Origin: Marsupella aquatica
Lineage: Eukaryota; Plantae; Marchantiophyta
Assembly (NCBI GenBank): GCA_973895155.1
Contig: OZ316894.1
Coordinates: 6,720,234 to 6,784,233 of the forward strand
Reading direction: 5' to 3'
Length of the DNA stretch: 64,000 nucleotides
Of this stretch, positions 14,259 to 55,526 are shown piece by piece (the stretch's first letter is position 1; each line of letters opens with the position of its first letter). The notes beneath the pieces were generated by a model, which made no database searches, had not been told where the DNA came from, and saw only the letters and a program-made list of their open reading frames with translations. A program made the translations under genes and the position numbers.

Positions 14259-14270
14259 GCTCTGATACCA
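14259..14270 (-). promoter_or_regulatory. Primer binding site, tRNA-iMet
   Basis: TGGTATCAGAGC on the minus strand, 2 nt after the 5' LTR. Confidence 0.95.
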
Positions 14271-14272
14271 AT

Positions 14273-33536: not shown

Positions 33537-33916
33537 GAGTTTTCCGTAAAAGCTCACTTACGGAGTGAGTTCCCAGGGTGAAAAGCAGGAGTGAGCTGAA
33601 CACAGGGTGAGTTAGCTTGTGGCAGCGGCACTCAAATACACTAGAGTAAAATCCAGGGCGAAAACGGGAAAGTGATCTTTGGGGGTGGCAATGCCTAAGT
33701 CACCCTGTAATCTTGATGTGGGCAGCAACTACCGTGTGAGGGACGTCAGAAATGCTCAGAGTCGAGAGTTGCCCTAGAAATCATTAGCTGTAGGACTTCA
33801 CCTTGAGTTTTGACTAAAAAGTCTGTTCAATCATGCTCTACTTTCACGGTAACTAGCATTTTAGAATTACAGGGTGAGTGGCACGTCTTTTCATGGGCTG
33901 CTTTTACGTAAAACTC
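33537..33916. mobile_element. MITE with 17-bp TIRs and TA flanks
   Basis: TA|GAGTTTTCCGTAAAAGC ... GCTTTTACGTAAAACTC|TA. Confidence 0.8.
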
Positions 33917-34081
33917 TATTGTCTTCTCAAAAGCTTGCTTGGTTTCTTTACACTACGAAAAATTTCAGGCTAAATAAGTAGCCCTACAATTGAACACTAT
34001 AGCAAAGCTGAGATAGATGTAGAGGACCAACATAGAAGGGAACACTTCACAAAAGTCATTGGGAGTCCACTTTATTAAGAA

Positions 34082-35830
34082 CTAGCTCAATACCCGTGCG
34101 TTGCACAAAAGATGTCGTCACGGCCAAGATGTCATTGAGAACAAAAGAGGTCATGTCGGCCAAGATGTCATGTCGGCCATGAATTGGTTGAGAAATAAGA
34201 TGTCGTGTCGACCAAGAGATTGTTGAGAAAAAAGTTGTATTGGCCTCATTCACAATTGGAGGACCCAAAAGGAACGTCACACTCAAAAGTGACCATAGTT
34301 TATTATGCTTTAGGATATCATTTGTAGGGTGTAATGAGATGACATAGAAAATTTGATGTACTATACTTAACAAACATCCTGTAGGTTGGTAACATTCATT
34401 AAACTATCTAGCATTTAAGACTTTGAAGATTTCCTTATATGTCCTTCAAAGATTGATAAAAGGACTTGTCATGCAACGGGTCACATCATTTCAGGACTAA
34501 AAAATACCCCCAAAAATGCATTTTAGACAATGAAATTTTACCAAAGCATGCATACTAATAGAATAATCTTATATTTTAAAACTCAAATATTGACACACAC
34601 TAAACCTTTATGTACAGGACAAAAATAATCAGTAATTTTGGCTTATTTAGGGCCAACAATAATAGGATCCCTTAAAACAATTAAAAACTTGATTTATCTA
34701 CATGGTGAGGTAGGTTACACCATGTAAAATAGTCTTGTGAAAAAATTAGAGTTAAATGTCTTCAGATAAAATCATGGTGAAGCTTTTTCCATGTTATAAA
34801 AGTCATTTTTCACTAAAAAAAACATGTTTTTGAGTCCTGAAAGTGGTTCCTGCGAGGTACACCCTGTTGTGAATGAGGCCTATTGGCCAAGAGGTCGTTG
34901 ACAAAAACCGATGTCGTGTCGGCCAAGATCTCATTGATAAAAAAGACGTCGTATCGGCCAAGAAGTCATTGAGACAAAGGATGTCGTGTTGGCAAATTAA
35001 GAAGTCGTTGAGAAAAAAGATGTCATGTTGGCCAAGATGTTGTTGAGAGAAAAGATGTTCTGTCGGGCAAGACATCACTGAGAAAAAAGATGTTGTGTCG
35101 GCCAAGACATCATTGAGAAAACAGATGTCGTGAGGAAAATAATTACCCGTGCATGGCACAAAAGATTGTGTGTTGCCCAAAATGTAAAAGATGTCAGTAT
35201 GTGAAAGATGGCGTTAAGAAAAAGTTGTCATTTTGCCAAACTAAGTTATTGTGAAGTAAATGATGTTATAAGTAAAAAGGTGTTGTTTCACCCAATATGT
35301 CCTTAATATGTGAAAGATAGCTCAATACCGTGCGTTGCACAAAAGATGTTGAATATTAAGAAAAAATATGTCGTTTTGCCAAAGATGTTGTCAACAAAAA
35401 AAGTGTCATGTTGCCAAAGATTTCGTTAAGAAAAAATATGTTGTGTTGCCAAAGATTTCGTTAAGTAAAAAGATGTCATGTTGCCAAAGATGTCGTTAAT
35501 ATGTGAAAGATGTTGTGAAGTAAGAAGATGTCATTAAGAACTATGATGCCGTGTTGCCAAAGGTGTCGTGAAGAAAAAATGTTCTTATGTGAAAAATGTT
35601 GTGAAGTAAAAAGATGTCAATGCGCCAAAGATGTCTTTATGTCTAAGATGTCGTCAGGTAAAAGATGATGTTTCACCAAAGATGTTATTAAGTATTTTTT
35701 GTTAAGTACAAAATGGTCGATAAGTAAAGAATGTCGTTAGACAAAGATGTAAGTTGTGAAGTAAAAGATGTTCTTAAGTACAATTGAAAATATTGCTAGT
35801 AAACCATGTTAAGTTAAGTAAAAAAGTTGT
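34082..35830 (-). mobile_element. Non-autonomous Helitron 3' region filled with degenerate short tandem repeats
   Basis: Minus strand reads GTGCAACGCACGGGTATTGAGCTAG|T (hairpin plus CTAG-T end) at 34106-34081; second copy near 35318-35340. Repeats of aaagatgtcgtgtcggccaagatgtcattgag. Confidence 0.75.
34242..34880. mobile_element. TIR element nested in the Helitron repeats, 4-bp TSD TATT
   Basis: GGCCTCATTCACAA ... TTGTGAATGAGGCC with tatt on both sides. Removing it restores a host repeat unit. Confidence 0.8.
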
Positions 35831-36178
35831 TAAGTTGTTGCCACTTTTTTGCCACCCCTTGCATCCTGAAGTCCCATTGATAACCCCAAACTTTTGGTTA
35901 CATTATTAAGCTTTTTGCTGAAAGTTACCATCATTGGCCGCTTACTTAAAACTTCTTCCTTAAAGTCGCCGCAATAGCTTAATTGGCGTTGTCTGCCCCG
36001 ATGTCGAGACCCCCTGGGGTAACGGCGCTGCTTGGCTGACTTTTCAATGGCCCTTTCCCTGCACTTGCATATATCTTGCAACCTCATCAGTAACCCCAAT
36101 TTTTTGGTTACTTTAAGCTTAGTTTGATTAAAGTTGACTGCGGCTGCTTTCTTGGCTTTGGCCGCCCCAACGCCAATT

Positions 36179-36293
36179 CCCCTTGAGGCAACGGCACAAC
36201 TCAGCCCACTTTTCAACAAAACAATTTGCCTACCCCTTGAGGCAACGGCACAACTCAGCCCACTTTTCAACAAAACAATTTGCCTACCCCTTG
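36179..36293. repeat. 54-bp tandem repeat, two copies
   Basis: ccccttgaggcaacggcacaactcagcccacttttcaacaaaacaatttgccta, twice. Confidence 0.9.
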
Positions 36294-39087
36294 CATGGAA
36301 CCCCTTTGGTAACCTCATCCAAGTTTACTCGGCTCCGTAGTCGCCAATACCATGCCCCCTTGGGATAGTGGTGTGGTTTGCAACACTTTCCAATATTGGA
36401 GGACCTGCCACCCCCAGACCAACTTTGGTCCAGATATTTTGGCCCCCACCCCATGCCTCTTCCTGTGGTAAACAAAGTGGCAAGACATAACAACAACTGA
36501 GGGGTTGTTGGGGAGTTGGAACCCAGGGCAAGATTGAGTTAGGGTTGGAGATGGAACTTTGGGGTCCCAGGTTTAAAACATTAATTTTTTGTTTTTAGCC
36601 AATGTGGTAAATGTCAGCCTCTCAAAGGTAGGAGATGCTAGGAGTATTCTTCCACAAATTTTCTTGAATTATATCATATTCGTCAGATATCCCTAGATTT
36701 ACATGCAACCGTTAGATTTTGGCAAATGAGATCCATGATTTGGTGGGAGAGTGACCAATGGTATGCAAAAAATCTAGCAAATTTTTGGCAAAAGTGGCGG
36801 AAAAAGTGGTGAACACATTTTGGGGAGGTAGAATTTGGCAAAAGCTTGCACCAAAAAACTACATTTATTGGATCGAGGCTAGGGCCAGGGTCGTCTCAGG
36901 AGTTATCATCGCTTCCTCTTCACTCTCCCTCTTCTGGCCATTCAGTAGTTGTTGTTGCTTAAAAGTTCTCATTAAATGCCAGGAGCCCTTATGAGCTCAC
37001 ATAGGCTTGGAATAGAGAACTTTAAACTCCAAAGGGAAAGAAGCTACGTTCCTCCCTTTCTCTTAAAAGTTGTACTCTGTTGGTACAACTGTACCTCTCT
37101 AGAGGACCTCTATCCTCTTTGTACCTTGTACCTGGGGTCCCAAGAGTAATGAGCTCATATGTCTCTATCTGAAGGTACAATAGTACCTGTCTTGTGCATC
37201 TTTGTGTACCTGGTTTGTGCACACCCGGCCCTGTACCAGGTTTTTTCACGTCCCTTTTTTTTCCCTTATTGGTTCCATATTTACAGGTTTCAATTATTAT
37301 CACCCAAAAGGACACTCCAAATTTGAATGACGACCATGCCATTTTTTGGCGCAACTGTGTATTCTAGTTTAGGATTATGGCTCACTTGGGTTTCCCCTTC
37401 CCCAAAAAACCCAATCATGGCTTGCCAGTCTATCTGTAGTTATCATTAATTTTAGACTGAATCAGCTAAAGTGGTCATTGGCAGAGGGTTCCTCTCCTAC
37501 TACATAACCCTCTAACACCATAATTAGATCTATCAAGACCCAATTACTCTCCATCTGAGTGACTGGTGGTGTCAATGAGATGTCTATCTCAACTTGTTCA
37601 GACCTTTCCGGTGTTCAGCCATGGGCGTGGTGGACCCATTCTAAATGTATATTGAGCTAGCAAAGCATCCATACTGAAATTAGCATAGTTACCACAGACC
37701 AACACTAAACATTTTTCCAATTCTAAGGTTACTCTCTTGAGAATGGGTCTCGAGTATGGTCACTCCTATTGAAATTAGTGTAAAAAAGACCAACACTAGA
37801 ATTTGCAAAACATTGTTCCATTTCTAAAATACAGGAGAATGGGTCTCCAAGTATGGGTTTGCTGATAAGATTAGCTGAGCAGGGGGAGCCAAGCAATGTT
37901 CTTGCCCATGGCTCATGCAATCTATAGGTGCAGACAATCCCCAATCTTTGTTTCGACCCTTCTTTTTGACAACTAAAGCTATTAGTCAAAAAATAAAAAG
38001 ATTAGAGTCATAGAAGGTTGTTTCAGTGGAAAAGAGAACTTCCACATAAAATCTAATTTCTATTTTCTAGTGCCACAATGCAAATGAGAAGCTAGTTTTT
38101 GGAAGTTTGTTGATAAATATTCATATTTAGTCTAGCGTGGTCTACATCTATATTTTATTGCCTTTCTACATGGCTTCACAATTGCATTTAAGCAGCTTAC
38201 ACATTATGTCTTCATTGATATAATGCTTGACATTGATTCTATGATATTTCTGCACACCTGATAACATGATCGTAATGATTGCATGGCTATAACAACACCA
38301 CAACAACTGCATGGATACAGCAACAATATGGCAACGCAACTACAATTGTACAAACCTGTAGGCCATTTAGACCAAGTGCATGGCTACAACTATCACATGA
38401 CCTTAACCACAACATAGCCACAATGACACATAAAAAGTCTCAATCAGTTTGTGGATCCCTGCACAGACCCCATCCTCCCATCTCTCTATAGCAATTCTTC
38501 AATTCAATGCAATGGGAGAAAAGAACTTACCTGGAAATATTTAAGTGTTGTATCAAAGTTATGTGATGTTTTACATGACAATAATTAAAAATATGATCTC
38601 CATATTAGTGCTCATTGCGCTTCATCACTATATTCATTAAAACTGTACTTTTAAAAGTCCATAAGATGAACCCTAAAGTTAATTTTTTTCAGGCCAAATT
38701 CTATTAAAGCATTCCCCAAAGCTAATTTTTTTCAGCCCAAATATACACTTTTGAACGCCCAAAATTTTGTTTTTTTTCACCCAAATGTTTAATAATAACT
38801 TAAATCATATATTCTAATTAATTTAAAAATTAGAGTAAATTTAATTTAGTCCAAAAATCAGAGGCCAATACCACTCAGACCATCTATAAATTAAAAAATA
38901 TAGATGGTCATAAATCAAGGGTCAAAATGAGATTGACCCACTATATAATTATTAAATTGTCCAGTCCAGGGAGAGAGCCTCACACTATGCATATCCTAAT
39001 TATTACTTTATCCTACATGTTCAAAACATATCCTTTGACATAATATGAATGTACAATTCAGGGTAGGCACTAGAGCAACCCTATCTC

Positions 39088-40127
39088 CTAATGATCAAGA
39101 CAAAACTCATTTGAACAAGAAAGTCTGCTTCTTGATTTATCATAGCGGATATCACGGTTGCAAGTATCTCTCGCATGGTGGTTCTTAAACTTATTGGTGA
39201 GATCCCTAGTTCTGAGAACTTTCCAAATAAAATGCCTTCTATTTTGTCTATGAGGACCAGAATAGTTGTCTCCAAGTATTACGTTTGCAGTTTCTTCGAT
39301 CTCATCCGTGGTCCACGTCTCCAGTGGTGGGTAATGCTGCACCTCGTTCTTTCCGTCCCAAGGAATCTCTTCAGGAGTCACATCCAAGATGGTTCCAAAC
39401 TCTTTATGGATACAACGACAATCTCCCCACTTCTGTTCCAAAAGAGCATAGATGGCAGCATGATCCTCCTTGCTTGTTAATAAATTGAAAACAGACCGCT
39501 TTGGATTGTTGACAGTGATATAATGTTGAACGCAGTAAGCCTTTCTCAATTTGCAAAGATACAGCCATAATATCTCGGGCAAAAAAATGTCATTTGAAGC
39601 TGTGTGAGTAAATGGATTTGGAAACAATCCATTCACGTCATAATTCAAAAATGCCTTCAATGGAGAATCATCAATAAGAACTGTATTAGAAGCATCATAT
39701 TTTTCTGGAAAACAGTCCCAAATGGTTTGCAAATTCTTCAGAAGTAAATTGGCCTTCCCATTTGTTATATCTGGCCTTTGGATGCAACTATCAAAGGTAT
39801 CTTCTTGAGTAAAGACAAACTTGAACTTCTGTCGCTCCTCCTCAGTGAAAATCAACTCCATTAAGTCCATTGTTTTTGGCCTCCTTGCACAGGTCCAAAT
39901 TGCGACGTCAAAAACCATGAAAGCTGCATATAGAAATTCGTGGAGGTATGGGCGCTCCACATACATGAAATTAAACCCTCCACGTCTCCCCCAGTGCACA
40001 CCACGTAAACTTGTCTGATTTCGCCATGGTCCTGAGCTTTTGGTCTTAATGCAATCCCAACAAATCTTGTTAAGGTCAAGAACCAAGAGCTTTCGCCGGA
40101 TCGGAGAGTGTAGTATTGGAGTGAATT
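39088..40127 (-). CDS. FCP1/SCP (NIF)-type HAD phosphatase-like domain (last exon)
   Basis: RRKLLVLDLNK, ERPYLHEFL...FDVAIWT, KNLQTIW and YDASNTVLIDDSPLKAFLN. Confidence 0.85.
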
Positions 40128-40481
40128 CTGGAAACATTAAAATAAGCCCTTAGTCAATGCGACTCAAAGTTTAAACAATTACTACGGAGGAAAACTCTCA
40201 AAATTTGAAATCAAACAAACTTTGTTATAGCATTTGAAGTAGAGAGGAACGACCCTGGGGCGACCCTCCTATAAAAACATTAATTACATTCACTTGCCAT
40301 TTTTTAGATCCAAAGTATACCTGGGTCAAACCCTTCCTCCATAGCAACACTTTCCGAGGGAATGCCAACAAAATCCTTTGAGGAAGGAGATTCTACGACG
40401 GAACTTTGGTCTGTAAAAAAGTATATTATTACAAAGATAAAGCTTAGATTGTCATTAAAATACCAAGAACCAAAGAAAGGG

Positions 40482-42671
40482 CTAATAATTTCCAATGCTA
40501 AAATGCCCAAATTCATCTATTGTTTGATCACCTAGAACACTCTGTATCTCGGAATTGATACCACTGGGAAGTTGCTCTTCAAAGGATGGGGGTGCAAAAA
40601 CTAGGCTCAGTCTCAAGTTCAGTTTTTTGTAATCTGATTTTGCCATTATCTTTGGAGCATCGTCTAGTGATTCTATCATTCCAACCTTTGGTCCATTTCT
40701 CCATATAAAATGAGTTGCAGGACGGACTATTTTCATATATCCAGTCCTGCCGATCTCGGATCCAGAATTTTGTGAAAATGATAATACTACGGGGCTTCCT
40801 GTAGAAGCACTTGTAAAAACCAATTTAGTCTTTGATGAGCAATATAGAGGAGACAGGGGAGGATTTGAAGCACCTGCCTTCTCTTCTTCATTTGCAGCGG
40901 TCTCAGGTACTTGACGATCATCCTCCTTTGCAAGCACAATGTCTGACATTTCTCCCAATTCTACTACGTCAATATTGCCTAGACCATCTGCGGTTGCCTT
41001 CCAATGTGCGTCCGATGTGGACGATGTAAGATCTGGGTCTGACTGGTGCATCCAATTCTCTACACCGGCAAAGGGATTTCTTGGTGGGTTGCCCTCAGGT
41101 CGACCCACAACATCGGCCAACCCCACACCAAAGTAGGGAATACCTACCACTTGTGTTCCACGTTCATGATCCAAATTTTGGGTGACCCTGTCGTCTGTGT
41201 CGTGACCCAATTCTCCTTCCTCAATATCATCTTCGCCCTGGTCTACGCCTTCTTTGGTGCCAACATGCTCGGAAACCCCATCGCGGGCTCTACCAAATTT
41301 GGAACCGCCCATCCGATCACTCATTATGGAAGGAACTTTCTCGTAGAGAACCCTTCCATATGCCTGAGTGAAATCATATTCATCCTCAGTGTCTGAATAC
41401 GCAAAGCATTCTCTGAAACACAACAATGACACCTTCATAACCTGTCCTCCCGAGAAAAAGTCAAGTATAGTCTCCCCTTCAGCCGAAAAAAATTCAATAA
41501 TACTCTGCAACATACATTTTGGCTTAGCGTGAATATTCACAAAGCCACCTCTACTTCCCACCATCTCAAACATGGGAGCCTTTCGTAAGAAATCTCCAAT
41601 GTGAAATGCCGAAGTTGACTCAGTCTCTGTCTCCTTACTTGTCTTACTCTTATTCTTATCTCGCTTCTCCGTCTTGTCTTCCACTTGGAAATCAGGGTTG
41701 ATCGTCGAATTGTAAGAAAATTGGCAATTAAATCCAGGCCTGAACACTTGGTTCCAATCAAATTTCTCCTCAGTGGTGATTCCTGCAAAGATTATCTCCT
41801 CCATACCACAACTGAAAAGTAAGCCCTCTGGAACTCGTGTATCACTCCGTCGATAGCTCCCATAGTCAACGTGGATGTCGATTCCCTTTTCATGTTGCAA
41901 TTTCCTAAGGGCACTCAAAATGTTTGCAGCAAGTGGCCCCGGATGCACAGTCATGACAACAACAATTGTTGGATTTCTTGGAAGATCCACAATGTATTGC
42001 AGTAATGCAATAATTTCAGCATCGGTCCAAACATGTTGTCGGAGCCTACTGAAGTCAACAATGGCAAAAGGACACAAAGGCAAAGGCTCTTGTAGCATTT
42101 CCGGCACGGTCGTCTTCATCAAATTATCACTATAAAATGTCAAGAAAGGCTCCGTGCGAGAACGACCAATCCCACCAAATTCTTTACAATACAACCCATC
42201 TCGTCTGACCATCAGACCTTGTGGAAAACTCTCCTTGACCACATTCTTCTTCAATGAATTGTTGAGGTAAACCTCACCCGCTGCTCTCCTCAATTTTTTC
42301 ATCTCAAGCTCAGATTTCAAGGAAGGCAACAATATCACCAGAGACTCCCAAGATGTGCCAACAGGAAACTTTTCACGATACTTTTCCACGAAATAGCCAA
42401 TAATGACTGTTATCAATTTGGACATTATCTTGATTGTAAGGGCCAAGTCTCCCATTGCGACAAGCTCTGATTTGTTGGTGATATCCTTCTTCAGCAAGAC
42501 TCGCTCCTCTTCAACGTCCTTCAAGATCTCAATTATCTGTTTGCTACTAATCTCTCCTTCAAAGCATCGAAAGGTACCGGAGTGATCAATTTTGGGGGTC
42601 TTGGCCCTCCATACCCACCAGCCCCGTCTTGGAGCTTCCCACTCAACCATTTTGCACACACGTTCCGCCAT
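40482..42671 (-). CDS. N6-adenine/N4-cytosine DNA methyltransferase-like domain (beta-class order) plus acidic linker
   Basis: VNIHAKPKCMLQSIIEFFSAEGETILDFFSGG matches HPxQKP..L...I...S.EGD.VLD.FxGxG. Upstream AIVDFS sits at the DPPY position; MEEIIFAG is also present. Confidence 0.7.
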   Translation of the reverse strand: MAERVCKMVEWEAPRRGWWVWRAKTPKIDHSGTFRCFEGEISSKQIIEILKDVEEERVLLKKDITNKSELVAMGDLALTIKIMSKLITVIIGYFVEKYREKFPVGTSWESLVILLPSLKSELEMKKLRRAAGEVYLNNSLKKNVVKESFPQGLMVRRDGLYCKEFGGIGRSRTEPFLTFYSDNLMKTTVPEMLQEPLPLCPFAIVDFSRLRQHVWTDAEIIALLQYIVDLPRNPTIVVVMTVHPGPLAANILSALRKLQHEKGIDIHVDYGSYRRSDTRVPEGLLFSCGMEEIIFAGITTEEKFDWNQVFRPGFNCQFSYNSTINPDFQVEDKTEKRDKNKSKTSKETETESTSAFHIGDFLRKAPMFEMVGSRGGFVNIHAKPKCMLQSIIEFFSAEGETILDFFSGGQVMKVSLLCFRECFAYSDTEDEYDFTQAYGRVLYEKVPSIMSDRMGGSKFGRARDGVSEHVGTKEGVDQGEDDIEEGELGHDTDDRVTQNLDHERGTQVVGIPYFGVGLADVVGRPEGNPPRNPFAGVENWMHQSDPDLTSSTSDAHWKATADGLGNIDVVELGEMSDIVLAKEDDRQVPETAANEEEKAGASNPPLSPLYCSSKTKLVFTSASTGSPVVLSFSQNSGSEIGRTGYMKIVRPATHFIWRNGPKVGMIESLDDAPKIMAKSDYKKLNLRLSLVFAPPSFEEQLPSGINSEIQSVLGDQTIDEFGHFSIGNY

Positions 42672-42849
42672 AATTCAAAGAGCTCATCTTCGGCAAAAAG
42701 TAACCAATAAATGCTCTTTAGGCTTGACTTCCCCATTGTAACCTTTGCCAGGGCAAACCAATCCTGCATATCCAATGGACTTGACATTAGTTTCAGGGTA
42801 CAATGCATATGTTAGAAAATTTATACCTATGTTTGAGACAGGCTAAGCC

Positions 42850-43029
42850 GTCTCGCCCCAAGGGCGTGGCGAACCTCTACATCTAACCGCAATTGACTGA
42901 AATGGAACTAGGGAATTATTCTTAGAGAGACTAGTCTAGGTTGCCTCGCCCTGAGTGCGAGGCAAACATTTGCTTTAATCTTCTAACCAAGGAAAACAAG
43001 AAAAGGTAGCCTCGCCCTTGGGGCGAGGC
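42850..43029. repeat. Three intronic copies of the palindrome GCCTCGCCC-NNN-GGGCGAGGC
   Basis: Copies start at 42850, 42943 and 43009. Confidence 0.85.
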
Positions 43030-43097
43030 AAACCTCTACCACTGACAATATTTAAACAAAGCGGATCAAGAATAGTTTGCGTTGCTCCAACATGTAC

Positions 43098-43640
43098 CTG
43101 ATAGTTTTTCCTGTCTGTATTTTGATTGGTCCCAATCCCTGGATGCGGCGGTTTCCCGCACTCCTCAAACTGCCTTCGTGCATGAACAATAGTCTCTAAA
43201 AAACAAGACTTAAATTGCATAGTATCATTGACAGCATTCGATAAACTTGAATGCTCAACCAAAATTGTCTTCGGAGTGAGGTCAGATAGGATCCTTGATT
43301 TCCTATACTTTAGTTTGTTGGCAAGATCTGTCAGCTTGGCGTCAGTCTCAGCCCACCTTTGGATCCATTGGGCAGCTCTTGCAGAATGCTGGCCACTGAT
43401 GGCAAGGAATTGGATCTCATGCTTCTTTCCTATCCTGAGGTGTGTTGTCATAATGAAGCAACTGTTTAGTGCTCTCGCGATACGGAATCAAATCTACAAC
43501 TTGTGGTTCCTGTCCAGGGTTTTTCATCATAGACTTTGATATCTCCATTGCATGCAAAAGATTGAACATTCGATATACAAAAATGGCCGATGGCGGAATA
43601 ATACTTTTTACAGGAATATCAAAAGTATAATACTGCTCAA
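43098..43640 (-). CDS. ParB/sulfiredoxin-like domain (frameshift near 43440)
   Basis: FDIPVKSIIPP...YRMFNLLHAMEISKSM...VVDLIP / FLAISGQHSARAA...YRKSRILSD...SSLSN; GQH corresponds to the ParB GxxR/GxH loop. Confidence 0.6.
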
Positions 43641-44664
43641 TATTACGCAAAACCTCTTGGCCTTTGAGCACATCATCTTCTTTGGGTCCTTCTGTCGGAC
43701 ACTGTATATCATCCTCTGGATGCAAGACAAAGTTTGAAGTCGACGCTGACATATATTGGTTTTGATTTTGCAACCTTTGCCTTCTTTGTCTGCTTTTTTT
43801 GGGGGCCCTCATCATCTTCATTTTTTTTAGCCATCTTCTTACGGAGTGAACTCCCAGATTGTTTCTCTTGTTGAACAACCGGCTCTCAAAGCTTTCATTT
43901 CTTCTCTGTCTTTGATTGCGCGCTTCTTTCCACTGTCTTCTTTCTCTCCTTTGCCTTATGCTTTGCTTCTTTTTTCTTCATCTCTGAAATCCACGTCCGG
44001 CACGCGGCCTCTTGAAACTCTGGACAAAAAATGAAAGTCTTGTTGATTGCTTGCTCATATGAAAAATGTGCCTTCTCAATCATCCTTTGAACTATCCAAG
44101 TAGACGGAGGGTCCACACTGTCCGCATTGTCATGCATGTGCTTCTTTGCGTAGAGAAATCCAAACACTAGGTCAACTCCACTTATTTGAGAACGCATCTT
44201 CTCAAACATCTGATCAATTGCTACTTCATCTGGGAAGAATCCCATATCAGCTACGCTTATCTCCAATCGAGCCATCCACTCAACATTCAGTAAAGTCAAG
44301 TAGAGTTTTTGGCACCAGAAGTCTCATCCACTGAGATTTCTCATTGGACTCAACAATAATCGTTGCATTGCGGTTGTTGTCCGTGTTCACAAGGACGACT
44401 GGACCTAGAGTAACAATTGTCTTGCGGTCATTCAATTGACTTGTGAGGCCCTTGAAACAAATCAAGAGACTGCCTTCCGCCGACACCCCAACTCTAGTGC
44501 CCATCTAAATCCTGAAGTATCTTGGTCAGGGAAAACAAAGTCCTTGATATCCTCGTCCATAATATTTAACTCCGGCTTCTCAAGATTTTTTCTGGTAAGA
44601 AACATTGAAAACAAAATGGTCAACATCATATTTTTAACATTGACATGTGGAAAACTTTCAAGGT

Positions 44665-45164
44665 GCCTCGCCCTTGGGGCGAGGCGACAAATAGAAGATT
44701 GCAAAATCTTCTTTGCTCCTAGTGCAATTAGCCCTGCCACCTCATCCAAGCAATCAAACATTATTTAGGAATGCAAACGACATCGCCTCGCCCCAAGGGC
44801 GAGGCAACTTCTGGGAAAGCAAACAACATTTAGGAATGCAGACAACATCGCAACTTCTGGGAAAGCAGACAACATTTAGGAATGCAGAGGACATCGCTTC
44901 GCCCCAAGGGCGAGGCAACTTCTGGGAATGCAGACAACATTTAGGAATGCAAATAACATCGCCTCGCCCCAAGGGCGAGGCAACTTCTGGGAATGCAGAC
45001 TACATTTTAGGAATGCAGACGACATCGCCTCGCCCCAAGAGCGAGGCAAAAAATAGAATATAGCTAAAGATCCTTTATTAAAGTAATATACAAGGTCCAA
45101 TACGCCTTTGAAGCAACAAAAAATCTAGAATGAAGTAGACGTCGCCTCGACCTTGGGGCGAGGC
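44665..45164. repeat. Array of about 65-bp units carrying the 21-bp palindrome GCCTCGCCC-CAA-GGGCGAGGC
   Basis: Palindromes start at 44665, 44785, 44896, 44961, 45027 and 45144; the tandem units span about 44757-45047. Confidence 0.92.
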
Positions 45165-45764
45165 GACTGCAAAGGAATATAGAAATTTTCCTAATAAGAA
45201 GTTTGAAATCCAAATTAAAGTAAAGTTTCCTCGCCCTAAGAAGTTGAAGTAGGTGGTGCCTGATCCACTCGTGCCCGATCTGTTGGTGTCCACTCGTGTG
45301 CTGGGTAATGTGTGGGCTTTTTGCCTCTCAAACTGAGTATAGACCTCCCACAATCCATTTTTTGGTTCATTGTTATTTAGACAGTGATTGGTACGGTCAC
45401 TGTGTGACGGGTACCCCGTCACGGGAAGTCACACATAACTGGTTGCAAAGGCCGATACCTTGTTAATAGTCAATGTAAATAAGCCATTTTTTAATTTTTA
45501 GTTAATTCCGTCATTATAGGTTGATGATGCCCCAGGTGACTTTATATTCTTTCTCTCATAATAGTTCTAAGATTTGCGGCGACCTAAGTGGGCAAATATT
45601 TTGGGACCTTGAAACTAGCCAGGACCAGCCCCATAGGACTTACCGTTTTGCTTCAAGAGCTATTGTTGAGACCCCCATTGCAAAGTCAGGAGAGGGGGGG
45701 GTTTTTTTTTAAATAAATCCCTCCTCAGGAGGGCGAGTCCCATTAGTGGCCGTCCGAGAGAAAG

Positions 45765-46139
45765 AGGGGCTGCCTCGCGAGCCCATAGGGCTGCGTGCCC
45801 GGGCGATTAATGGGGCTCCGCGAGCTGAAGGGGCTGCCTCGCGAGCCCATAGGGCTGCGTGCCCGGGCAATTAATGAGGCTCCGCGAGCTGAAGGAGCGC
45901 AAGCGAGCGGGGGGGGGGGGGAGTTAAAGGGCCTCCCGCGAGCTGGGAGGATCACGCGAGCGGGGGGGAGTTAAAGGGCCTCCCGCGAGCTGGGAGGATC
46001 ACGCGAGCGGGGGGGAGTTAAAGGGCCTCCCGCGAGCTGGGAGGATCACGCGAGCGGGGGGGAGTTAAAGGGCCTCCCGCGAGCTGGGAGGATCACGCGA
46101 GCGGGGGGGAGTTGAAGGGCCTCCCGCGAGCCGGGAGGA
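45765..46139. repeat. GC-rich tandem arrays: 2 x 64 bp, then about 4.5 x 47 bp with G7 runs
   Basis: 64-bp units at 45765 and 45829. 47-bp unit gggcctcccgcgagctgggaggatcacgcgagcgggggggagttaaa at 45929, 45976, 46023, 46070 and 46117. Confidence 0.93.
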
Positions 46140-46562
46140 ATGGCCGCGCGCCCTGCATAGGGCCGCGCGCAGGAGGACGCAAGGGTAAGGCCCGAGAAAT
46201 GGGCCGGGGCGCATGGCGAAGGCGCCAGGAGTTTTTTCGGTTCTATTTTTTTTTCCTTCCTTTTTCTTTCCCTCTTCCTTTTGCACGACCCTCTCATTGC
46301 CGAAAGCAAAAACGGGGTTCTTCTCTCTCTTGCCGGAAGCTCTCTCCAGATTCTAATTATTTTTGAAGCTCTCTCTTTCATGGTGGATTAGTGGGGCTTG
46401 CTGGCGTCATTCTTCCAGGCATTAGTGGCGGCCGCACGGAGTAGTGACGGGAAATTGAGAGAATTTAAGTGATCGGGCTACGGGGGCTGTTTCGGGCCAG
46501 GGAATTGACATTGCCACGGGTGACGGGATTGGTGATTGAGAAATTGATTTCGGGATGCATGG

Positions 46563-48419
46563 ATGCTAGATCAACCAGAGTTTAGTGCGTCACGCATTCG
46601 GAGATACAAGGCTGCTTACCGTGACTACGTGGAGACTCGGATTACACGGGAAAGGGAAGAGAGAGAAGTTATGATGAGCACGGGATTGGCAGCGGGTTCC
46701 TCACCGGTGGGTAGGAAGATTTTTCGTCGAATTTATCCCAAGACCTCCACCAAGGTGATGGAGGATTGTCGGAACATTTTCCAAGCCACCGGGCTTACAG
46801 AATTCATGAAGGTGGAGATTACCATCCCTTCAGGGAAGAGCTGGGACATTGAGGCCGGGATGGAGTTCCGAACGGAGGGAATCTACTTTGAATGTCTCAA
46901 ACGTGTAGTGCCCCATGTGGAGTTGGCTAAGCTATTGTTTCTTGAGAATCAGAAATTCTCATTCACACCTCGGAATATCAGGGGAGAACTCACGTTGAAA
47001 ATGGTGGCCACTTGGGTGACCAATCCTACCTCCACCACCGCCATCCCTCTTTCTGCTGTCAAGGATGTTGAGTATAAGGGCTTCCTGGCCAAGGTGCATC
47101 AACGGGTTCTTGGCAACGTGCAATCCGGAGTGCTGAATGAGGAGCATTTCGTGGTAGCTATGGACATCAAGAACTACCCAGCCCATGTGTACGGATGGTG
47201 GTGCTACGGATTGAAGAAGCTATTGGCCGCTGAGCCCGGGAGTGTGAAACCAGGTGGGGCTGTACATTTGATGGGGTCATTTGTATTGGCCAGGGCAGAA
47301 GGGTTGATTGGTTCTCCGGGGCATGAAGACACGGGATCATCTCTCACCACGGAGATCCGGAGTATTGCCACTACCGTTTTAGGGAAGCTCACGGAGGAAT
47401 CATTGTCTGCTGGTGGGGAGGATAATAGAGAAGAAGAGAACCAGGAGGATGATTGCACATTGGAGTGGCTTGAATCACTCGTGGGAGATCCGAAACAGCC
47501 TCTGGAATACAACATTCCGGATGTTTACTTGGCAGAGCTACGGGATTTCAGAGAGGGAGTCCACGAGGGACTCAAGCTAGTCCACGCATTGAGGGAGTCT
47601 CTCAAGCACGCCACAGTCAAAGTAGAGACGTTAGAGCAGAGCATCCTGTCACTGAAGGAGGTGATCAAGACCAAGGAGCAGACCATTCATGAGAAGGTCA
47701 GGCACATCAATGCAGCTCACGTAGAGATCACCAACTTGAAGGGAGCTTTGTCCACCAAGGCCAAGGAAGCAGAAGAAGTAGGAGCGTTGAGGCAAGCATT
47801 GGCCAAAGAGAAGCAAAATTCTGGAGAAGTGATGGAGTGGAGGAACCAGGTGGGAGCACTACGGAGTCAGGTGGCAGCCTTTGAGACACGAGCGAAGAGA
47901 AGTGAGGCCCTGAGTCTAGGGAAACGGAAGAGTCCCGGCACACCTGGCTCCACACTTTCCCCGGATGTGATCTCCCAAGCTATCGAGATGGTGGTGAAGG
48001 AGGTTAGTGGGAAGTATGGACCCTTGTTGGATGGAGCCAAGAAGAGTCAGGAGAAGAGTAAGAGCTTGGAGAAGAAGCTCCGGGAGGTACGGAAATCGTT
48101 ACGGGAGGCTCAGGTCAGTACGGGGATGCCACCCAGGTCTGTCACCCCCGGGACTCCCATGGCCACGGGGCAAGTTCTACCGTTGGAGTTGCGGTCCGGA
48201 GAAGAGGCTACCCTCTGGAAGGACACAATTGGTGAGGGGTACATCAAGGCGTGGCAGGCCTTGGCTGCTTTGAGGAAGCGCGGGAGCAGCAGCACTAAGA
48301 GTACTCCGTCGAAGAAGAAGAAAAGTACGGTGGCACTCACTCCCGTGAGTGATGAGGAGGAGGACCACTCACGGGGCACAAGTCCGGGCACCGAGAGCGA
48401 AGAAGAAGAGGAGGATTAG
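46563..48419 (+). CDS. Retrotransposon accessory (extra) ORF, 618 aa, coiled-coil C-terminal half, function unknown
   Basis: Intact long ORF ending about 50 bp before the PPT/LTR; heptad-rich LRESLKHATVKVETLEQSILSLKEVIKTKEQ; basic PSKKKKS followed by an acidic tail. Confidence 0.75.
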   Translation: MLDQPEFSASRIRRYKAAYRDYVETRITREREEREVMMSTGLAAGSSPVGRKIFRRIYPKTSTKVMEDCRNIFQATGLTEFMKVEITIPSGKSWDIEAGMEFRTEGIYFECLKRVVPHVELAKLLFLENQKFSFTPRNIRGELTLKMVATWVTNPTSTTAIPLSAVKDVEYKGFLAKVHQRVLGNVQSGVLNEEHFVVAMDIKNYPAHVYGWWCYGLKKLLAAEPGSVKPGGAVHLMGSFVLARAEGLIGSPGHEDTGSSLTTEIRSIATTVLGKLTEESLSAGGEDNREEENQEDDCTLEWLESLVGDPKQPLEYNIPDVYLAELRDFREGVHEGLKLVHALRESLKHATVKVETLEQSILSLKEVIKTKEQTIHEKVRHINAAHVEITNLKGALSTKAKEAEEVGALRQALAKEKQNSGEVMEWRNQVGALRSQVAAFETRAKRSEALSLGKRKSPGTPGSTLSPDVISQAIEMVVKEVSGKYGPLLDGAKKSQEKSKSLEKKLREVRKSLREAQVSTGMPPRSVTPGTPMATGQVLPLELRSGEEATLWKDTIGEGYIKAWQALAALRKRGSSSTKSTPSKKKKSTVALTPVSDEEEDHSRGTSPGTESEEEEED

Positions 48420-48473
48420 ATAGGCGTACGGACGTGGGTGTACGGCCTCCAGATTTCCAACATTTTAGTGGGG

Positions 48474-49530
48474 GGTCACTCATGGGCTTGTTGGGATGAG
48501 CTCGCGGAGCTGATTCCAACAAGAGGCGGCGCTCCTCAAACGGAGCCAGGATGAGCAAGTTATGGCCTGGAGAACTTATGTTTTTGCGGTACGGAAACGG
48601 CCATAACTCAGGCGTCTGAAGTCCGTTGAGGGAGCGACTTAGTGATTCGGAAGCAGGAAAAGAAGAGCTATCCAGGGGTGAGCTCAGGTGTGCACTTGGA
48701 AGGGCACCTAGTTTCGGCCATTTTGGGGTGCCTCTCACTTTCAGGGTTCACGTGTACTGTTGGGGCGCCGTCGAAGGCACCGTCGGCCCCCTTGTTTTGG
48801 GTTTAGGGTTTTAGCAGCATGTGTGTGCCGCATGCTCCTCTTCAGTTTAAGGATTTCTCTTAGTGCAAGGTTTTAGCGGCGCCGCTAGGGTAGCCGCCAC
48901 CGTTGTGACCCTGTGAGGGGTGCTTTGGTGTGATTTTTCAGTATTTAGGGGGATAGCCCCGAAGTAGTTAGGGGGACTCAGTGTGAAGTTAGCAAGGAGG
49001 GATAGAGTGGAGCCTGAGGAGTTTGAAAGCGTGTTCAGAGTAGTGAGGGGGAGCCATACTCATTGTCCGGAGAGGCAGGAGTTGAGTAGACGGCAGGAGG
49101 CCGGGTTACTCATGCAATGTGTATCGTTTTTCCCAAGAGATATGGATCTGTACATTTGACTTGATGGGCTTTTGTTGTGTGTTCCTTCTCCCTTTTTCGC
49201 TTTCCGAATTGTGTTCTCCCGTTCTATGATTTGAAGAAACTTGCTTGGTTTGAGTCGGCCTTGTGAGTAGGGGTGGTGACAGCACTCTTTGGGTGACTCC
49301 GAGTGAAGGTGTAGTGGGGTAGTCGGCAGGACTTGATCAAAAGCTGTGGGGTGAGGGTAGTCGGTAGACTTGATCAAAACCTACATTTCCGGGAGCGGAA
49401 ACCAAAATACTCATCCTGGTGTGAAAAGAATCCAAATAACGTCCCTCCACGACCCCGTAATACGATACCAACGGTTTAAGCGAAGAAAAGTGCGGTTTGC
49501 ACGTATTAACCGTTGGAGAGGCAAGTGACA
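48474..49530 (+). repeat. Putative gypsy LTR (about 1.06 kb)
   Basis: Follows a purine tract; termini (g)GTCACT ... AGTGACA are inverted, with the 5' T apparently mutated; ends 20 nt before the PBS. Confidence 0.55.
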
Positions 49531-49550
49531 TAAGTGTGGTCTTTTGTTTT

Positions 49551-49568
49551 TGGCGCCGCTGCCGGGGA
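49551..49568 (+). promoter_or_regulatory. Primer binding site, tRNA-Asp (Athila type)
   Basis: TGGCGCCGCTGCCGGGGA, one mismatch to TGGCGCCGTTGCCGGGGA. Confidence 0.9.
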
Positions 49569-49785
49569 ATCCTTCTTCTTGTTTGACGACACGAAGGAGG
49601 GGAGCTACGTCTATTGGGAGTTCAAACCTATCAACCACAACGCAACTTGCGACGGTTGATACGTGAGAAGTTTGTTGGTTACTTTGTTATTGTACGTCAA
49701 CCACAACGCATCGTGCGACGGTTGATGTTTACAAATATTGCTTTCTGAGACATTGGTGTAAGTTTGGAATGCAGGTCTCAATGGG

Positions 49786-51771
49786 ATGCCGAGAGGGAGA
49801 AGGGGAGGTAGAGGAAGTCCCCAACACACACGTACCCCAAGATCAGAGCTAGAAGGGGGGCCCTCTTGGATTGGGACCAGACGACGAGTTGCTGCCGAAG
49901 AACGCTTACGGCTTGCAGAAGAGAGGAGGTTGCCACTGGTGCTGGAAGAACAAGTTGGTGTGCAACAGGAAGAGGCTCAACGTAATGAGGCCATATGCCC
50001 AGACGAAGAGCCAGACATAGATCACGAGCGAGAAGAAGGAGAGCCCTTTGTGTTGGTGCAGTCTGAGTTACAAAATCTGATCCCAGAGCTCACTGCATTG
50101 CCACAAATCATCTCACACCTATCATCGGTGCTGTTACCGGTGGCCCAACAAGCGCCATTACCACCTGTGTTGATACAGGCACCGGCTGCACCGATGGCAG
50201 CTGCACAACGTACCCGTGTTCAGTACGTACCCTTCAAGGGGAGACCAAAGGATGATCCAGACGAATGGATTGAGGAGTTTGAAGGGATTGCCGAAGCTAA
50301 TGGGGAGTCTGCACATAAGCTCACTATCATTCCTGGAATGATGAGAGGGGAGGCAGGTCCATGGTTCATTTCGTTGTTGGCCAACGTGAAAGCTGATTGG
50401 GCTCTGTTCAAGCAAGCCTTCTTGAAGGAGTTCAGATCCATAGGAGTGGAGGCCACCTCACTATTAAAGGTGGGCCAACTCAGGATGAAGAAGAAGGAGT
50501 CATTACGGAGGTTTTTGCAAAGGTTCCAAAAGCTGGTACGTCGGATCCAAGCCCGTACCGATGATGCTATGCGTCAAGCCTGGTTTGTGGCTGCCCTACC
50601 AAGCAAGATGGGGTTCTTTGTACGTCAAGCCAAGCCAACCACATTGGCTGAAGCTATTGCAGCAGCGGAGTCATACACCGCAGCTGATGCCACAAGCAAG
50701 CGTTGCCGAAGAAAGAAGCTGAAGCCGGTTGACAGTTCCTCCAGTGAGGAGTCGAGTGGATCTGATTCAGATAGTAGTGATGAATCTGAGGATTCTGAGA
50801 GTACTACAGAGTCAGACACTACGGAGTCAGAAGCTGAAAGACGAAGGAGGAAGAAGAAGAAGTTGTCAAAGAAAGTCAAGAAGTCCTCTCACCGTGAAGT
50901 GATACTACCCACGGTGGCCGTTACACCATTGTCTACGGCAAGACGCCTGAAGGAGCAAGAGGCCAGATATGATGAGCTGACGGAGCAAATGAAAGCGTTG
51001 AAAGTACATTTTGCCGGACTCAAACCTGAGAGGAGAAAAGTTCCGGTGGAGAGAGCCAATGTGTGGTGCACCAAGTGCATGAAGTTTGGTCATGCCCCGA
51101 AGGAGTGCCCAGCGGGAGAACCAGCCAAGGTTTTCCAAGTACGGGAGGAGGATGTTGAGGGGGCAAGCTACTCAAATCCTTCATATGCAGCGGAAGGGCC
51201 AATAGAGTACTTCATGGAGGAGCCACCAGAGGCCAACGTGTATAGTGTACAACCTCTCAACCCGGGACCACGGAGCATTCATGGAGTTTCAACAAACGCC
51301 GGAGCACCCGCATACTCCAACTATCCCAACGCTAACCCAGGGAATCGACCACCGTACCCTGGAGTGAGGAAGATCCCTATTTGTTACAATTGTAGAGTGG
51401 CGGGCCACTACGCTAATGTGTGCCCAGAGCCCACCCGTCAAGGCAATGGAGATTTTGCCCGGCTGTGTCAACTATGCAAGGGGGAGGGTCATCTTGCACC
51501 ACACTGCCCAACCTTGGAGGCGTTCAAGGCTCAACCGATTGGGGCACAAGAGAAGAAGGGGCCGCCACCTCCTCTGAAAGAAGCTAGCGTCAACTTTCTC
51601 ACCACGGAAGCAGTCGACACCCCTCTAATCACTAGAAGAGAAGAAACCGTAGTGAACATTCCCAAGCAAAGGATGACCACCATAACGGAGGAGGTGGTAC
51701 CGCTAGTCGTTGTAGTATCTCCAGTTGTTGAGATACCGGTGGTTGTTGACTCTTTGCTGAACATTACTTAA
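49786..51771 (+). CDS. gag: Ty3/gypsy Gag with three CCHC zinc knuckles, truncated before protease
   Basis: PFKGRPKDDPDEWIEEF, MRGEAGPWF, WALFKQAFLKEF, ESLRRFLQRF, KPTTLAEAI; knuckles CTKCMKFGHAPKEC, CYNCRVAGHYANVC and CQLCKGEGHLAPHC. Confidence 0.9.
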   Translation: MPRGRRGGRGSPQHTRTPRSELEGGPSWIGTRRRVAAEERLRLAEERRLPLVLEEQVGVQQEEAQRNEAICPDEEPDIDHEREEGEPFVLVQSELQNLIPELTALPQIISHLSSVLLPVAQQAPLPPVLIQAPAAPMAAAQRTRVQYVPFKGRPKDDPDEWIEEFEGIAEANGESAHKLTIIPGMMRGEAGPWFISLLANVKADWALFKQAFLKEFRSIGVEATSLLKVGQLRMKKKESLRRFLQRFQKLVRRIQARTDDAMRQAWFVAALPSKMGFFVRQAKPTTLAEAIAAAESYTAADATSKRCRRKKLKPVDSSSSEESSGSDSDSSDESEDSESTTESDTTESEAERRRRKKKKLSKKVKKSSHREVILPTVAVTPLSTARRLKEQEARYDELTEQMKALKVHFAGLKPERRKVPVERANVWCTKCMKFGHAPKECPAGEPAKVFQVREEDVEGASYSNPSYAAEGPIEYFMEEPPEANVYSVQPLNPGPRSIHGVSTNAGAPAYSNYPNANPGNRPPYPGVRKIPICYNCRVAGHYANVCPEPTRQGNGDFARLCQLCKGEGHLAPHCPTLEAFKAQPIGAQEKKGPPPPLKEASVNFLTTEAVDTPLITRREETVVNIPKQRMTTITEEVVPLVVVVSPVVEIPVVVDSLLNIT

Positions 51772-52747: not shown

Positions 52748-52920
52748 GGACCTAGTTCTCTCTCTTCTCTCTCAGTCTCTCAGGCAGCTTAGCTTAGCAA
52801 AGTTTCTTACATAGCTTTGCTACAGTCATTACACGTGAGGAAGAATCATAACTTTGATATAGTGAATCATAACTTTGATATAGTCATTACATTGTGAAGG
52901 AGAAGCGCATCCAGGAAACA

Positions 52921-53364
52921 ATGGCTCGAAGTCGAAGGAAGAGAGTCCGGGGTATAGAAATTGACCCAGAGGCCGATGCTGGGCCCAGCGTTGCTGAAGT
53001 ATACGGTCATATCATCAACGAAGTAATTCACGATGTGTGGAAAAATCTCTGTGATGATTTTCGGCTGGAGAATATGGATCAAACCGATTTGGCACAGCTC
53101 CAGCAGACTTGGGAATCAAATTTGATCAAATCTGGGGCTGTCGGATCTACCACGACAGACGAGCAGAGCGTACCAGCACTGATAACAGTAGGTAATGCAT
53201 CAACACAAGTTCCCGCACAAGTTATCGACATCAATGTGCCCCACGAAGGAACTGACGAGCTGATACCGCTACCGAACACACAGGCTCACGTAATGCGATT
53301 CCCCTTCCAATGCAAAACCCTGCACCAGTTTTCATCAGTGGAGGAGATCCAACCATGGCTCTAA
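52921..53364 (+). CDS. TFIIA large subunit N-terminal domain only (truncated paralog or retrocopy)
   Basis: SVAEVYGHIINEVI...DDF...LAQLQQTWESNLIKSG matches the TFIIA-alpha helices; VIDINVPHEGTDE matches plant HDLNVPYEGTEE. Confidence 0.7.
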   Translation: MARSRRKRVRGIEIDPEADAGPSVAEVYGHIINEVIHDVWKNLCDDFRLENMDQTDLAQLQQTWESNLIKSGAVGSTTTDEQSVPALITVGNASTQVPAQVIDINVPHEGTDELIPLPNTQAHVMRFPFQCKTLHQFSSVEEIQPWL

Positions 53365-55526
53365 CCGGCAGAGAATTGAAGAGGTTTCGTTACAGTCCTG
53401 GAGGACCTAGCTAGTGAGTCCTCTAGTGGGATCGGTGCTACGTTGGCTACAGCTTGATGACGAGCACCGAAGGCAAGCTTCCAATATGCCAAAGCGAGCT
53501 CCGACCTGCGATGTATCAAAATGGGAGTGAACGTAGATATTGAACTTCATCTTAACATGACAGTTACGGTCAAGAGGAAGGTGAGTCTGGGCAATATGGA
53601 CGGAAGCGGAAGATAGAAGAGGATCAAATAACCCCCAACTCCCGTCTCAGCTCTAAATTAAATAATGGCACTTATGTTCCACAGCGAGAAGGAGCAGGAG
53701 GTTTTCTTCCATCTTCCACTGTATGCGAGCAACAGCCGCAAACTGGTCTGTAGAATTCAATCTACAAGACTAGATCCAACAACAAGAAGGAATGCGCTCT
53801 AAGAAATGTACGAAAAACGACTACTGGAAATTCATATCATTGACGGCGGGGAAGGCAAGCAACTGGGGCCTTCGACTTGTGATCAGCTGAGATGACGGGA
53901 CTCTGCCGCGGAAATCAGTGACTTCGTGGATTTCGTTGATCCTGCCGAACACTCAAAAATCGAGGTGGAAAAGGCCTTGTAGAAAAGAGAAATCGTGTGA
54001 ATAATGGTCAGGTTGGAATAGATCAGATCAGATTCAATAAATGTCATGTTGCCTCCTGTCCATATATGTGGGAGCAAAATCGCAAACCATTTTGAATAAA
54101 GCAGAGTTTTTTTGACAGTTTAATAGCTCTGCTGTTTCGTTGCTTGACTGTGAACGGAACTTTTAGCCTTTTAGATTCAGTCTTTTTTTTACATTACTTA
54201 CAATGTAAGTTGCCGCCTGAGTATATGAGGTTTTACTGCCGTGTGGTGCAGCCTGAGAATCCCGCTCCCTTAAAATGCATTGAATTGAATTTAGAAGACA
54301 GCTCTTTACTAGTTTATTTTCGTTCAGTTCTCAGACAATCCTCTCTTGCGTTGTATTTGTTGGAAATATATCTCGGGACTTTCCATGTTTTTGAGCATTC
54401 ATTCATTTGATGACATGAACACACAATTGTGTAGTTCACAAGATCAATTAATACAAGCTCCGCTTTGTTTCATTCTTTTCATAAAGAAACAATCTTTGTC
54501 AGCTCTTCATATTTTTTTGAATAAACAGAGTCCATAATTCATAGTTTATGGGTCAAGAACTTTTTGATCACATCAGATTATTAGTTTATTAGTTTACGTA
54601 GAATATGGTACGGCACTCTAGTTCGAATCAAGTAGTCACATGTCATCTCAAAGCAGTTCAGAGTGTTTCGTTGAATGTGATTTCTTTGATTTTAGTCTCG
54701 AAGGCCAGTCATTCTTTAATGCTCGACATCACTGCAACCGCTATGATGCGCATTAAACGTCGAATAGAGTATTTCAATGTAGTACATAAACACAAACTAC
54801 AAAGTGAAATTTCCGATAGATAAGTTTGTGAAATGGGAAGATTGTTCTTACTACATTGGTCTAGTCATGAGAACGTGACCACAAAAATCTATAGAAGCCC
54901 TTGAGCCACAATTTGGGCAAATTCATCTAACTTTATAACGTCTGAAGTTCTATTGACTTCCTAGTTGGTTTGGGCTTCAGTTCCAGTTCCTAAATGTGTC
55001 CGACTTATATTTAAGCTCGCTTATGGGGGGGGGGGGGGGGGGGGCGGGCTAGTTTAGCAACTATTGTCAGTAGAATGGATGCAATGCAGTGAAAACATTG
55101 ATCGTAGGCTACATCTCAATAGTGAGCAATGAATGACGGTATCAGTCTTTAAGAGATTGAAAAACCCAACCTAAGATAGAGTACATTACTAGCCCATCCT
55201 CGATAGTGACGTACACCTCCCGTAATTGTTTACATCCCTGGAGTTAAAAACAATGGCATCTTGATTCATGCGAGTATTGGTGGTCTATCTGCGCATCCCG
55301 TGCTGCAAGCTATTTGTTGTGACAATACTCTCCTTTATAAATTGATGAAGCTTGACCATTTCTAATCAACTGAATGAACCACAACAGAATTTTTCGAGCT
55401 CAAAAAAGAATTTACGACTGCGAAGGATCTAAGGCTTCTCCATCGAGTCCCGAGAACCCGCCCGAGAATTGAGTGAGTTAAAACTTAGAATAGCTAGAAA
55501 TAAAGAACTGGACTTGAGGATTTGTA

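Follow-up and report, generated by a model that had tools for sequence, protein, structure and literature searches.

Few transposons have been proven to recognize and modify the DNA of which they consist, and the only one named in the account of the Bostrychia elements is VANDAL (bioRxiv 10.1101/2025.02.11.637652). In VANDAL21, the motifs targeted by VANC21 lie in introns and upstream regions and have spread through tandem repeats; both the binding and the demethylation have been proven (PMC5735166). In the Plavaka (EnSpm) elements of Bostrychia, tandem inverted repeats adjoin a ParB-like gene, PAG3, and self-binding has been proposed (bioRxiv 10.1101/2025.02.11.637652). In Ectocarpus, one accessory polypeptide of Sola1-1_Ec32 contains ParB-like and N4C/N6A methyltransferase domains, and is proposed to bind and modify the element's own sequence (PMC12477816). 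Adenine methylases of another group, fused to ParB-HTH, are noted in chlorophytes and chytrids (Iyer 2016, PMC4738411), and Marchantia contains a beta-class amino-methyltransferase, DN4MT1 (bioRxiv 10.1101/2021.02.12.428880). Going by these sources, a role for ParB together with inverted repeats has already been proposed in red algae, and a ParB-methylase fusion has been reported in brown algae. A search of the open literature on ParB in liverworts, bryophytes and Helitrons found no land-plant case of a ParB-carrying transposon, the Bostrychia and Ectocarpus papers being the only relevant ones. For green algae, the algal-transposon literature reportedly cites Iyer 2011.

The locus described here lies in a 64-kb stretch of contig OZ316894.1 of the liverwort Marsupella aquatica (the window, to which all coordinates refer). 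It has the algal-type set of features: a gene that joins a ParB-like part to a domain of DNA-modifying type, a multi-copy DNA element, and adjoining inverted repeats. Compared by description rather than by sequence homology, it resembles the PAG3 elements, in which a ParB-like accessory gene within a DNA transposon is likewise adjoined by inverted repeats. However, PAG3 is described as fused to a 2OG oxygenase, with the methylase separate (PAG2, with SET), whereas here ParB is fused to a methylase fold that lacks motif IV. The Plavaka elements are given as 17-19 kb long with a transposase, whereas the liverwort element is ~6.8 kb and has none; it also differs in its intronic sites, in an NIF phosphatase as second gene, and in its land-plant host. 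The Sola1-1_Ec32 protein, again by description, similarly combines ParB-like and methylase domains in one polypeptide on a DNA transposon, but that element is 21.5 kb long and has a transposase, and its main text does not use the string "palindrom" (PMC12477816), whereas the liverwort element contains nine palindromes. As in VANC21/VANDAL21, a motif that is probably family-specific lies in introns and upstream non-coding DNA and has been multiplied by tandem repeats. However, the VANDAL21 motif is reported as 9 nt long, non-palindromic and in one orientation, the protein is unrelated, the element is Mutator-like, and binding in the liverwort is a prediction. Bacterial ParB-parS, Noc-NBS and KorB-OB (7bnk, 6sdk, 7ol9, 8qa9) share the N-domain fold, palindromes near the gene and, with moderate confidence, the helical DNA-binding fold, but the liverwort protein differs from them in lacking the GxxR arginine and a ParA partner, in having extra N-terminal, methylase-like and C-terminal domains, and in being encoded with introns. 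Beta-class amino-methyltransferases (CcrM, PvuII, MboIIA, rotifer N4CMT) share the fold, motif X and motif I, but not the motif IV sequence, here D(F/L)xR, or the ParB fusion; Marchantia DN4MT1 is set beside the liverwort element by description.

Extent, copy number and ends of the element

Six public sequencing runs from three organisms contain part of the window, and four of them were compared over 32501-46200. One of these, X1, possibly comes from the window's own sample and thus does not count as independent. The X1 contigs that cover the flanks have depths of 14 and 17 and show 0 differences from the window; the internal contigs have depths of 515 (39436-40083), 480 (40985-42661) and 474 (43293-44622), with 0.9-1.9% divergence from the window sequence. 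The resulting inside/flank depth ratio of ~30 is even across exons, intron and 5' region. From this ratio the element is present in about 30 near-identical copies, a rough estimate since read depth is not a direct copy number. At 0.9-1.9% from the majority form, the family is young.

The element, a non-autonomous DNA element of ~6.8 kb (38624-45388), has a mapped left end and a probable right end. The left end, 38624/38626, was mapped from joints in the read contigs: a single-copy X1 contig terminates at 38652, one X5 contig begins at 38624, and six X5 contigs carry unlike loose ends before 38624. The convention for such joints was calibrated on the Helitron end at 34081, for which the conserved target base is the place reported; by this check, AT-CACTA... 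from 38624 onward is common to the element copies. Documented high depth extends to ~45262, and a different repeat, a Ty3/Gypsy-type retroelement, begins at 45403 (X1 contig of depth 1524). The right end probably lies at 45386/45388. Of the 22 AGTGAT hexamers in the window, the one in the 20-mer ending at 45388 matches the left 20 nt best in inverted orientation (13/20), and 0.05 such hexamers are expected in the 140 bp between ~45262 and 45403. The termini would then read AT/CACTA...CAGTG/AT and probably place the element in the EnSpm/CMCT clade, which is described as having 5'-CA..TG-3' (CAC..GTG) termini and a 2-5-bp target-site duplication (PMC12730594). Alternatively, the end may be the A/TC end of a Helitron, which matches the left end, or the element may be longer and have been cut by the Gypsy insertion. 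The AT that is fixed in six insertions would also fit a Helitron, and a hairpin (45382-45402) abuts the start of the Gypsy-type element; however, neither a CTRR end nor RepHel was seen. The Gypsy-type neighbour (45403-51771, plus strand; PF03732, E 3.1e-9) is separate from the palindrome-bearing element, which it may have cut.

Neither a transposase nor RepHel was found inside 38624-45402. This interval contains two genes only, both on the minus strand, and no ParA ATPase gene, with extension past 45402 possible; no relative aligned to an ORF across 45078-45428. Just inside the left end lie three 16-bp direct repeats (38684, 38727 and 38771, spanning 38684-38786 on the plus strand), which are distinct from the palindrome and are candidate transposase-binding subterminal repeats. 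Four X5 contigs match the left end over its first 39 nt (38624-38662) and then continue into another common sequence that is absent from the window; these may belong to a sister family or mark the real opposite end of a longer element.

One of the two genes (39088-40342, minus strand) encodes a NIF/FCP1-like HAD phosphatase (PF03031, E 2.9e-15) with DLN in place of the DxD motif. From splice sites read in the sequence, it is predicted to consist of exon 1 (40321-40342), an intron (40128-40320) and exon 2 (40127-39088). Longer fused forms of the phosphatase were found in 0/408 candidates, which is weak evidence.

Copies, sequence and placement of the palindromes

The first-pass annotation had listed nine copies of a 21-bp palindrome in both orientations, and a scan of the window with up to three mismatches recovers all nine at the same starts. 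Four copies are perfect (43009-43029, 44665-44685, and those starting at 44785 and 44961), four contain one mismatch (42943-42963, 45144-45164, and those starting at 44896 and 45027), and one contains two (42850-42870). The claim that none lies in exons or elsewhere in the window holds at this threshold, at which there is no tenth copy in the 64 kb and 100/100 shuffled sequences give 0 matches. The 3-nt spacer is CAA in five copies, TTG in three and TGA in one; the presence of both CAA and TTG means that the palindrome occurs in both orientations. All 18 CpGs of the nine copies are intact (18/18). A partial copy that had been placed at 45229 proves to be a left half-site that actually starts at 45228 (45228-45236, plus strand). 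A second one, noted near 40250, is at chance level: 40246-40266 has mismatches at 6/18 positions and is one of 11 matches with 5-6 mismatches, another of which (41086) is exonic. In metagenome contigs the exact motif occurs at five loci, each with one full copy but no relative of the gene, and is attributed to chance; viral contigs contain it at one locus as a single copy.

Three of the palindromes lie within a GT-AG intron of the ParB-methylase-like gene (42764-43097), and six lie 5' of the first coding exon seen. Of the latter, the copy at 44665 has this exon 74 nt away on its 3' side, and those at 44785, 44896, 44961 and 45027 are contained in 65-bp tandem units (44752-45058, plus strand), so that the nine copies represent six independent placements. 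A 46-bp tandem unit without a palindrome is private to the window copy (X1 joint 44812-44860, depth 431), and one tandem unit lacks exactly 19 nt between two GC dinucleotides. Although exons make up 72% of the element, 9/9 palindromes are outside them (p ~5e-4 for six independent placements), an avoidance that coding constraint by itself would also predict.

The division into three intronic and six upstream copies stands as to position, but the six may not belong to the promoter: an acceptor-like site at 44592, immediately ahead of the first codons with homology, suggests that they may sit in a 5' intron instead. Were the 5' region a first intron, all sites could be intronic, as might be expected if they served as RNA stems that tune the splicing of the gene or recruited a host factor. 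GC-rich motifs can bind host factors. However, the mixed orientation, the 3-nt loop, the lack of any copy near the window's host genes, and 0 matches in Rfam make either of these roles very improbable.

The comparison with the other runs indicates how the sites have changed within the family. Among the best-supported differences listed, the majority letter agrees with the palindrome consensus at 42851 (X3 and X5), within the first palindrome, and, in 4/4 runs, at 42956, within the second, and at 45228, where it is the G of the half-site. The runs that restore the palindromes come from up to three organisms. One subfamily, in X3 and X5, lacks 85 nt that contain the third palindrome (joint 43006-43092); palindromes are gained and lost as blocks.

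Taken over the six placements (12 arms), the half-site consensus is (G)TY-GCCTCGCCC. The arms extend beyond the half-site with G at -3 in 8/12, T at -2 in 10/12 and a pyrimidine at -1 in 11/12, and at these three positions the two arms pair with each other in 2/6, 4/6 and 3/6 sites, respectively. Since the extension keeps its consensus without arm pairing, each arm follows a consensus, as for a site read by a protein. This bears on the possibility that the palindrome has no protein partner and is a GC-rich hairpin, spread through slippage and through tandem duplication and tolerated only outside exons. Six of the seven copies that were folded as single strands do form hairpins (z -3.9 to -6.0), the loss of 19 nt between GC dinucleotides is as in hairpin slippage, and the family is young. 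However, a hairpin of this kind would account for the deletion rather than for any gain, and the unpaired consensus of the arm extensions, together with six placements in both orientations and with unrelated flanks, makes it unlikely.

The first-pass annotation had also drawn a parallel with subterminal binding motifs of DNA transposons. The palindromes would in that case be sites for the transposase, or for another protein, of an autonomous partner and not for the ParB-like cargo; the element contains no transposase and hence must be moved in trans, and six palindromes lie ~220-720 bp from its probable right end. However, the mapped left end contains 16-bp repeats of a different kind and no palindrome, and three palindromes lie 2.4 kb inside, within the intron of the ParB gene. 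The parallel is not supported at the left end, and a role as transposase sites is decidedly unlikely.

The ParB-methylase-like gene and its product

The first coding exon seen (43098-44591, minus strand) encodes a conserved N-terminal domain, a Lys-rich linker and the ParB N-domain, and contains frame changes near 44310-44490, 43750 and 43427. The intron that follows (42764-43097, minus strand, phase 0, GT/AG at 43097/42764) separates the ParB N-domain from HTH-like helices. Its position is common to relatives, of which P0002, P0010 and P0027 read across the joint and P0008, P0009 and P0011 stop there. Exon 2 (40482-42763, minus strand) encodes the HTH-like helices, a beta-class amino-methyltransferase fold, an acidic linker and a conserved C-terminal domain, with a frame change near 42572. 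At least four frame changes interrupt the window copy; since the X1 majority has frame-changing differences from it at 44492 and 43751, some of these breaks are private to the window copy. The coding start would be at or before 44591, and the acceptor-like site at 44592 suggests a further exon upstream.

The relative P0008 is matched by 91 cluster representatives at E <=0.001, and in P0072 and P0090 the ParB and methylase parts are present within a single chain. All named relatives are from liverworts, Calypogeia fissa (3 proteins) and Riccia sorocarpa (7/20 looked up). Two of the Riccia sorocarpa proteins, P0079 and P0086, start with MARWKQTAR, which we take to resemble the histone H3 tail and thus to be possible histone mimicry. 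In viral contigs, two phage beta-class methylases match only in the motif X-I part and were rejected, and the ParB part is found in 0/24 candidates. Among 44 candidates from prokaryotic genomes, the one hit was a 23-residue match in the wrong frame and was rejected. In the ESM Atlas, P0008 retrieves DUF3723-like clusters from fungi (0.91; recognition low, few features in common), which is a lead only, and the C-terminal domain has no usable match; DUF3723 and ParB were not found together in the literature. A PDB sequence search with the ParB profile also returned nothing.

A structure model was made for P0010, which is 63% identical to the window copy in the ParB part (53 sequences; pLDDT 80). 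Its top structural matches, ahead of all others, are Noc-NBS, ParB and KorB (best E 9.3e-4), with Z up to 9.9 for ParB. The N-domain superimposes on that of Caulobacter ParB over 98 residues (Z 9.3, rmsd 2.4). The whole chain matches ParB less closely, with an rmsd of 6-9 A; over residues 37-230 of ParB, 136 residues align with an rmsd of 9, and the HTH region is only moderately confident. With KorB (51-259), 190/209 residues align (rmsd 5.9, Z 7.5), the model having a pLDDT of 54-83 in blocks 190-250; thus the helices encoded after the intron would map, with moderate confidence, onto the DNA-binding domain.

Within the ParB N-domain, the arginine of box I is conserved in 13/13 close relatives and in 43/53 overall, and the asparagine of box III in 52/53. 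The GxxR position in box II reads GQH followed by S (49), T (3) or L (1) in the 53 aligned relatives, with R in 0/53; the window copy has GQHS (43383-43394). In ParB, the GxxR arginine is a CTP-binding residue. Its replacement means that a canonical parS/CTP clamp is not supported. A true clamp, which would load at the palindromes and slide, for instance in partitioning or tethering extrachromosomal copies, would agree with the box I and box III residues and with the fact that the best structural matches, ParB, Noc and KorB, bind CTP. Nevertheless, the replacement in 53/53 sequences, together with the lack of a ParA gene in the element, leaves it highly improbable. The first-pass proposal that palindromes and ParB-like protein form one module can thus be retained in part: a predicted ParB fold with probable DNA-binding helices and non-coding sites are combined in one multi-copy mobile unit, but not as a canonical parS/CTP clamp.

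The methylase fold occupies ~41316-42158, with motif I (DFFSGG) at 41445-41462 and DFSR at the motif IV position (42045-42056). A model of exon 2 matches CcrM over 217 aligned residues (Z 17.4, rmsd 3.5), PvuII with Z 15.3 and rotifer N4CMT with Z 15.0, and Z ranges from 14 to 17 over CcrM, RsrI, MboIIA, PvuII and N4CMT. The domain thus has the beta-class fold with the motif order IV-X-I, and motifs X and I are kept; the PF01555 match (E 0.0024) is under the curated cut-off. The catalytic motif IV, [DNS]PP[YFW], is present in 0/14 sequences that have motif I. The equivalent column, set by eye from strand order and the ranges of the structural alignments, reads DFSR, DFGR, DFTR, DLLR and DLAR, or D(F/L)xR (8 aligned). 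Since a DPPY-type motif is lacking, the suggestion that the element methylates itself by the standard mechanism is not supported. Overall, the models predict that the gene family combines a ParB N-domain, ParB/KorB-type DNA-binding helices and a beta-class DNA amino-methyltransferase fold.

Proposed role of the palindromes and neighbouring sequences

On balance, we favor the prediction that the palindromes serve the ParB-like protein of the element as family-specific sites, through which it would control or protect the element in a VANC-like manner. This reading is based on nine copies, where 0 are expected by chance, that are confined to the non-coding parts of the element and missing from its mapped left end; on decayed positions at which the family majority restores the palindrome; on arms that follow an extension consensus without pairing; on a P0010 model that matches Noc, ParB and KorB first; and on the same design having been proposed for PAG3 and tandem multiplication being seen with VANC21 targets. 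Several points count against it. The confinement of the motif to the family rests on 64 kb, all sites could have been inherited and duplicated within one young family, palindromes restored by the majority are expected for any recent copy, and one subfamily lacks the third site. Furthermore, parS-type sites are shorter than 21-25 bp.

If the palindromes are indeed cognate sites, the ParB-like protein would dock on them as a dimer by means of its helix-turn-helix, each subunit reading one 9-12-bp half-site, (G)TY-GCCTCGCCC. The protein would come in trans from intact copies of the element, and the clustered sites near the 5' end could nucleate an oligomer. The bound protein would likely keep the promoter region of the element open or self-controlled. 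Loss of both the GxxR arginine and DPPY points to a role in binding or scaffolding rather than as a CTP clamp or a standard methylase, and the methylase-like domain may be a DNA/SAM-binding module or an atypical enzyme instead of a standard 4mC/6mA writer. The outcome might be shielding from host silencing, as VANC provides for VANDAL, or autoregulation; anti-silencing is the preferred purpose, with autoregulation a close alternative. For transposase the element would depend on an autonomous partner acting in trans, which might be of EnSpm/CMCT type. More speculatively, and with considerable doubt on our part, liverwort transposons might use a captured prokaryotic ParB-HTH plus pseudo-methylase as a sequence-programmed anti-silencing device, in which the long family-specific palindrome changes together with the recognition helix and a bound oligomer, aided by the CTD-type phosphatase, keeps 5mC/4mC silencing away from the element.

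Because the element is short, young and multi-copy, has a clear 21-25-bp site, and belongs to a lineage with a transformable model, the proposal can be tested directly. If binding fails, the palindrome is an ordinary internal transposon repeat. If the anti-silencing reading is true, land plants would have a second self-recognition system, unrelated to VANDAL/VANC, and the ParB kind would for the first time be represented in a group of organisms that is open to genetics.

The remainder of the window contains several other mobile elements. The Gypsy-type element ends after gag, with pol missing, and its PBS-like site near 49550 is preceded by an unusually long region of ~4.1 kb that contains a coiled-coil ORF of 623 aa with no clear Pfam assignment. 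A young Ty1/copia element (8905-14748) has two identical 476-bp LTRs and a 5-bp target duplication, and encodes gag and pol in one frame with a single stop between them. A high-copy element (34081-~37500) has a minus-strand Helitron-type 3' end at 34081 (hairpin plus CTAG, T target) and 35-bp tandem arrays, and more than 100 contigs from two runs have loose ends there. A Harbinger-type DDE_Tnp_4 transposase lies in two ORFs at 82-1625, and a broken TFIIA large-subunit-like fragment (PF03153, E 3.2e-5) at 52879-53900. Long host ORFs, intronless over these spans, are present at 3634-5514, 29339-31816 and 57652-58539; they are presumably ATP-citrate lyase beta-like, seipin-like and PIN-like, respectively.
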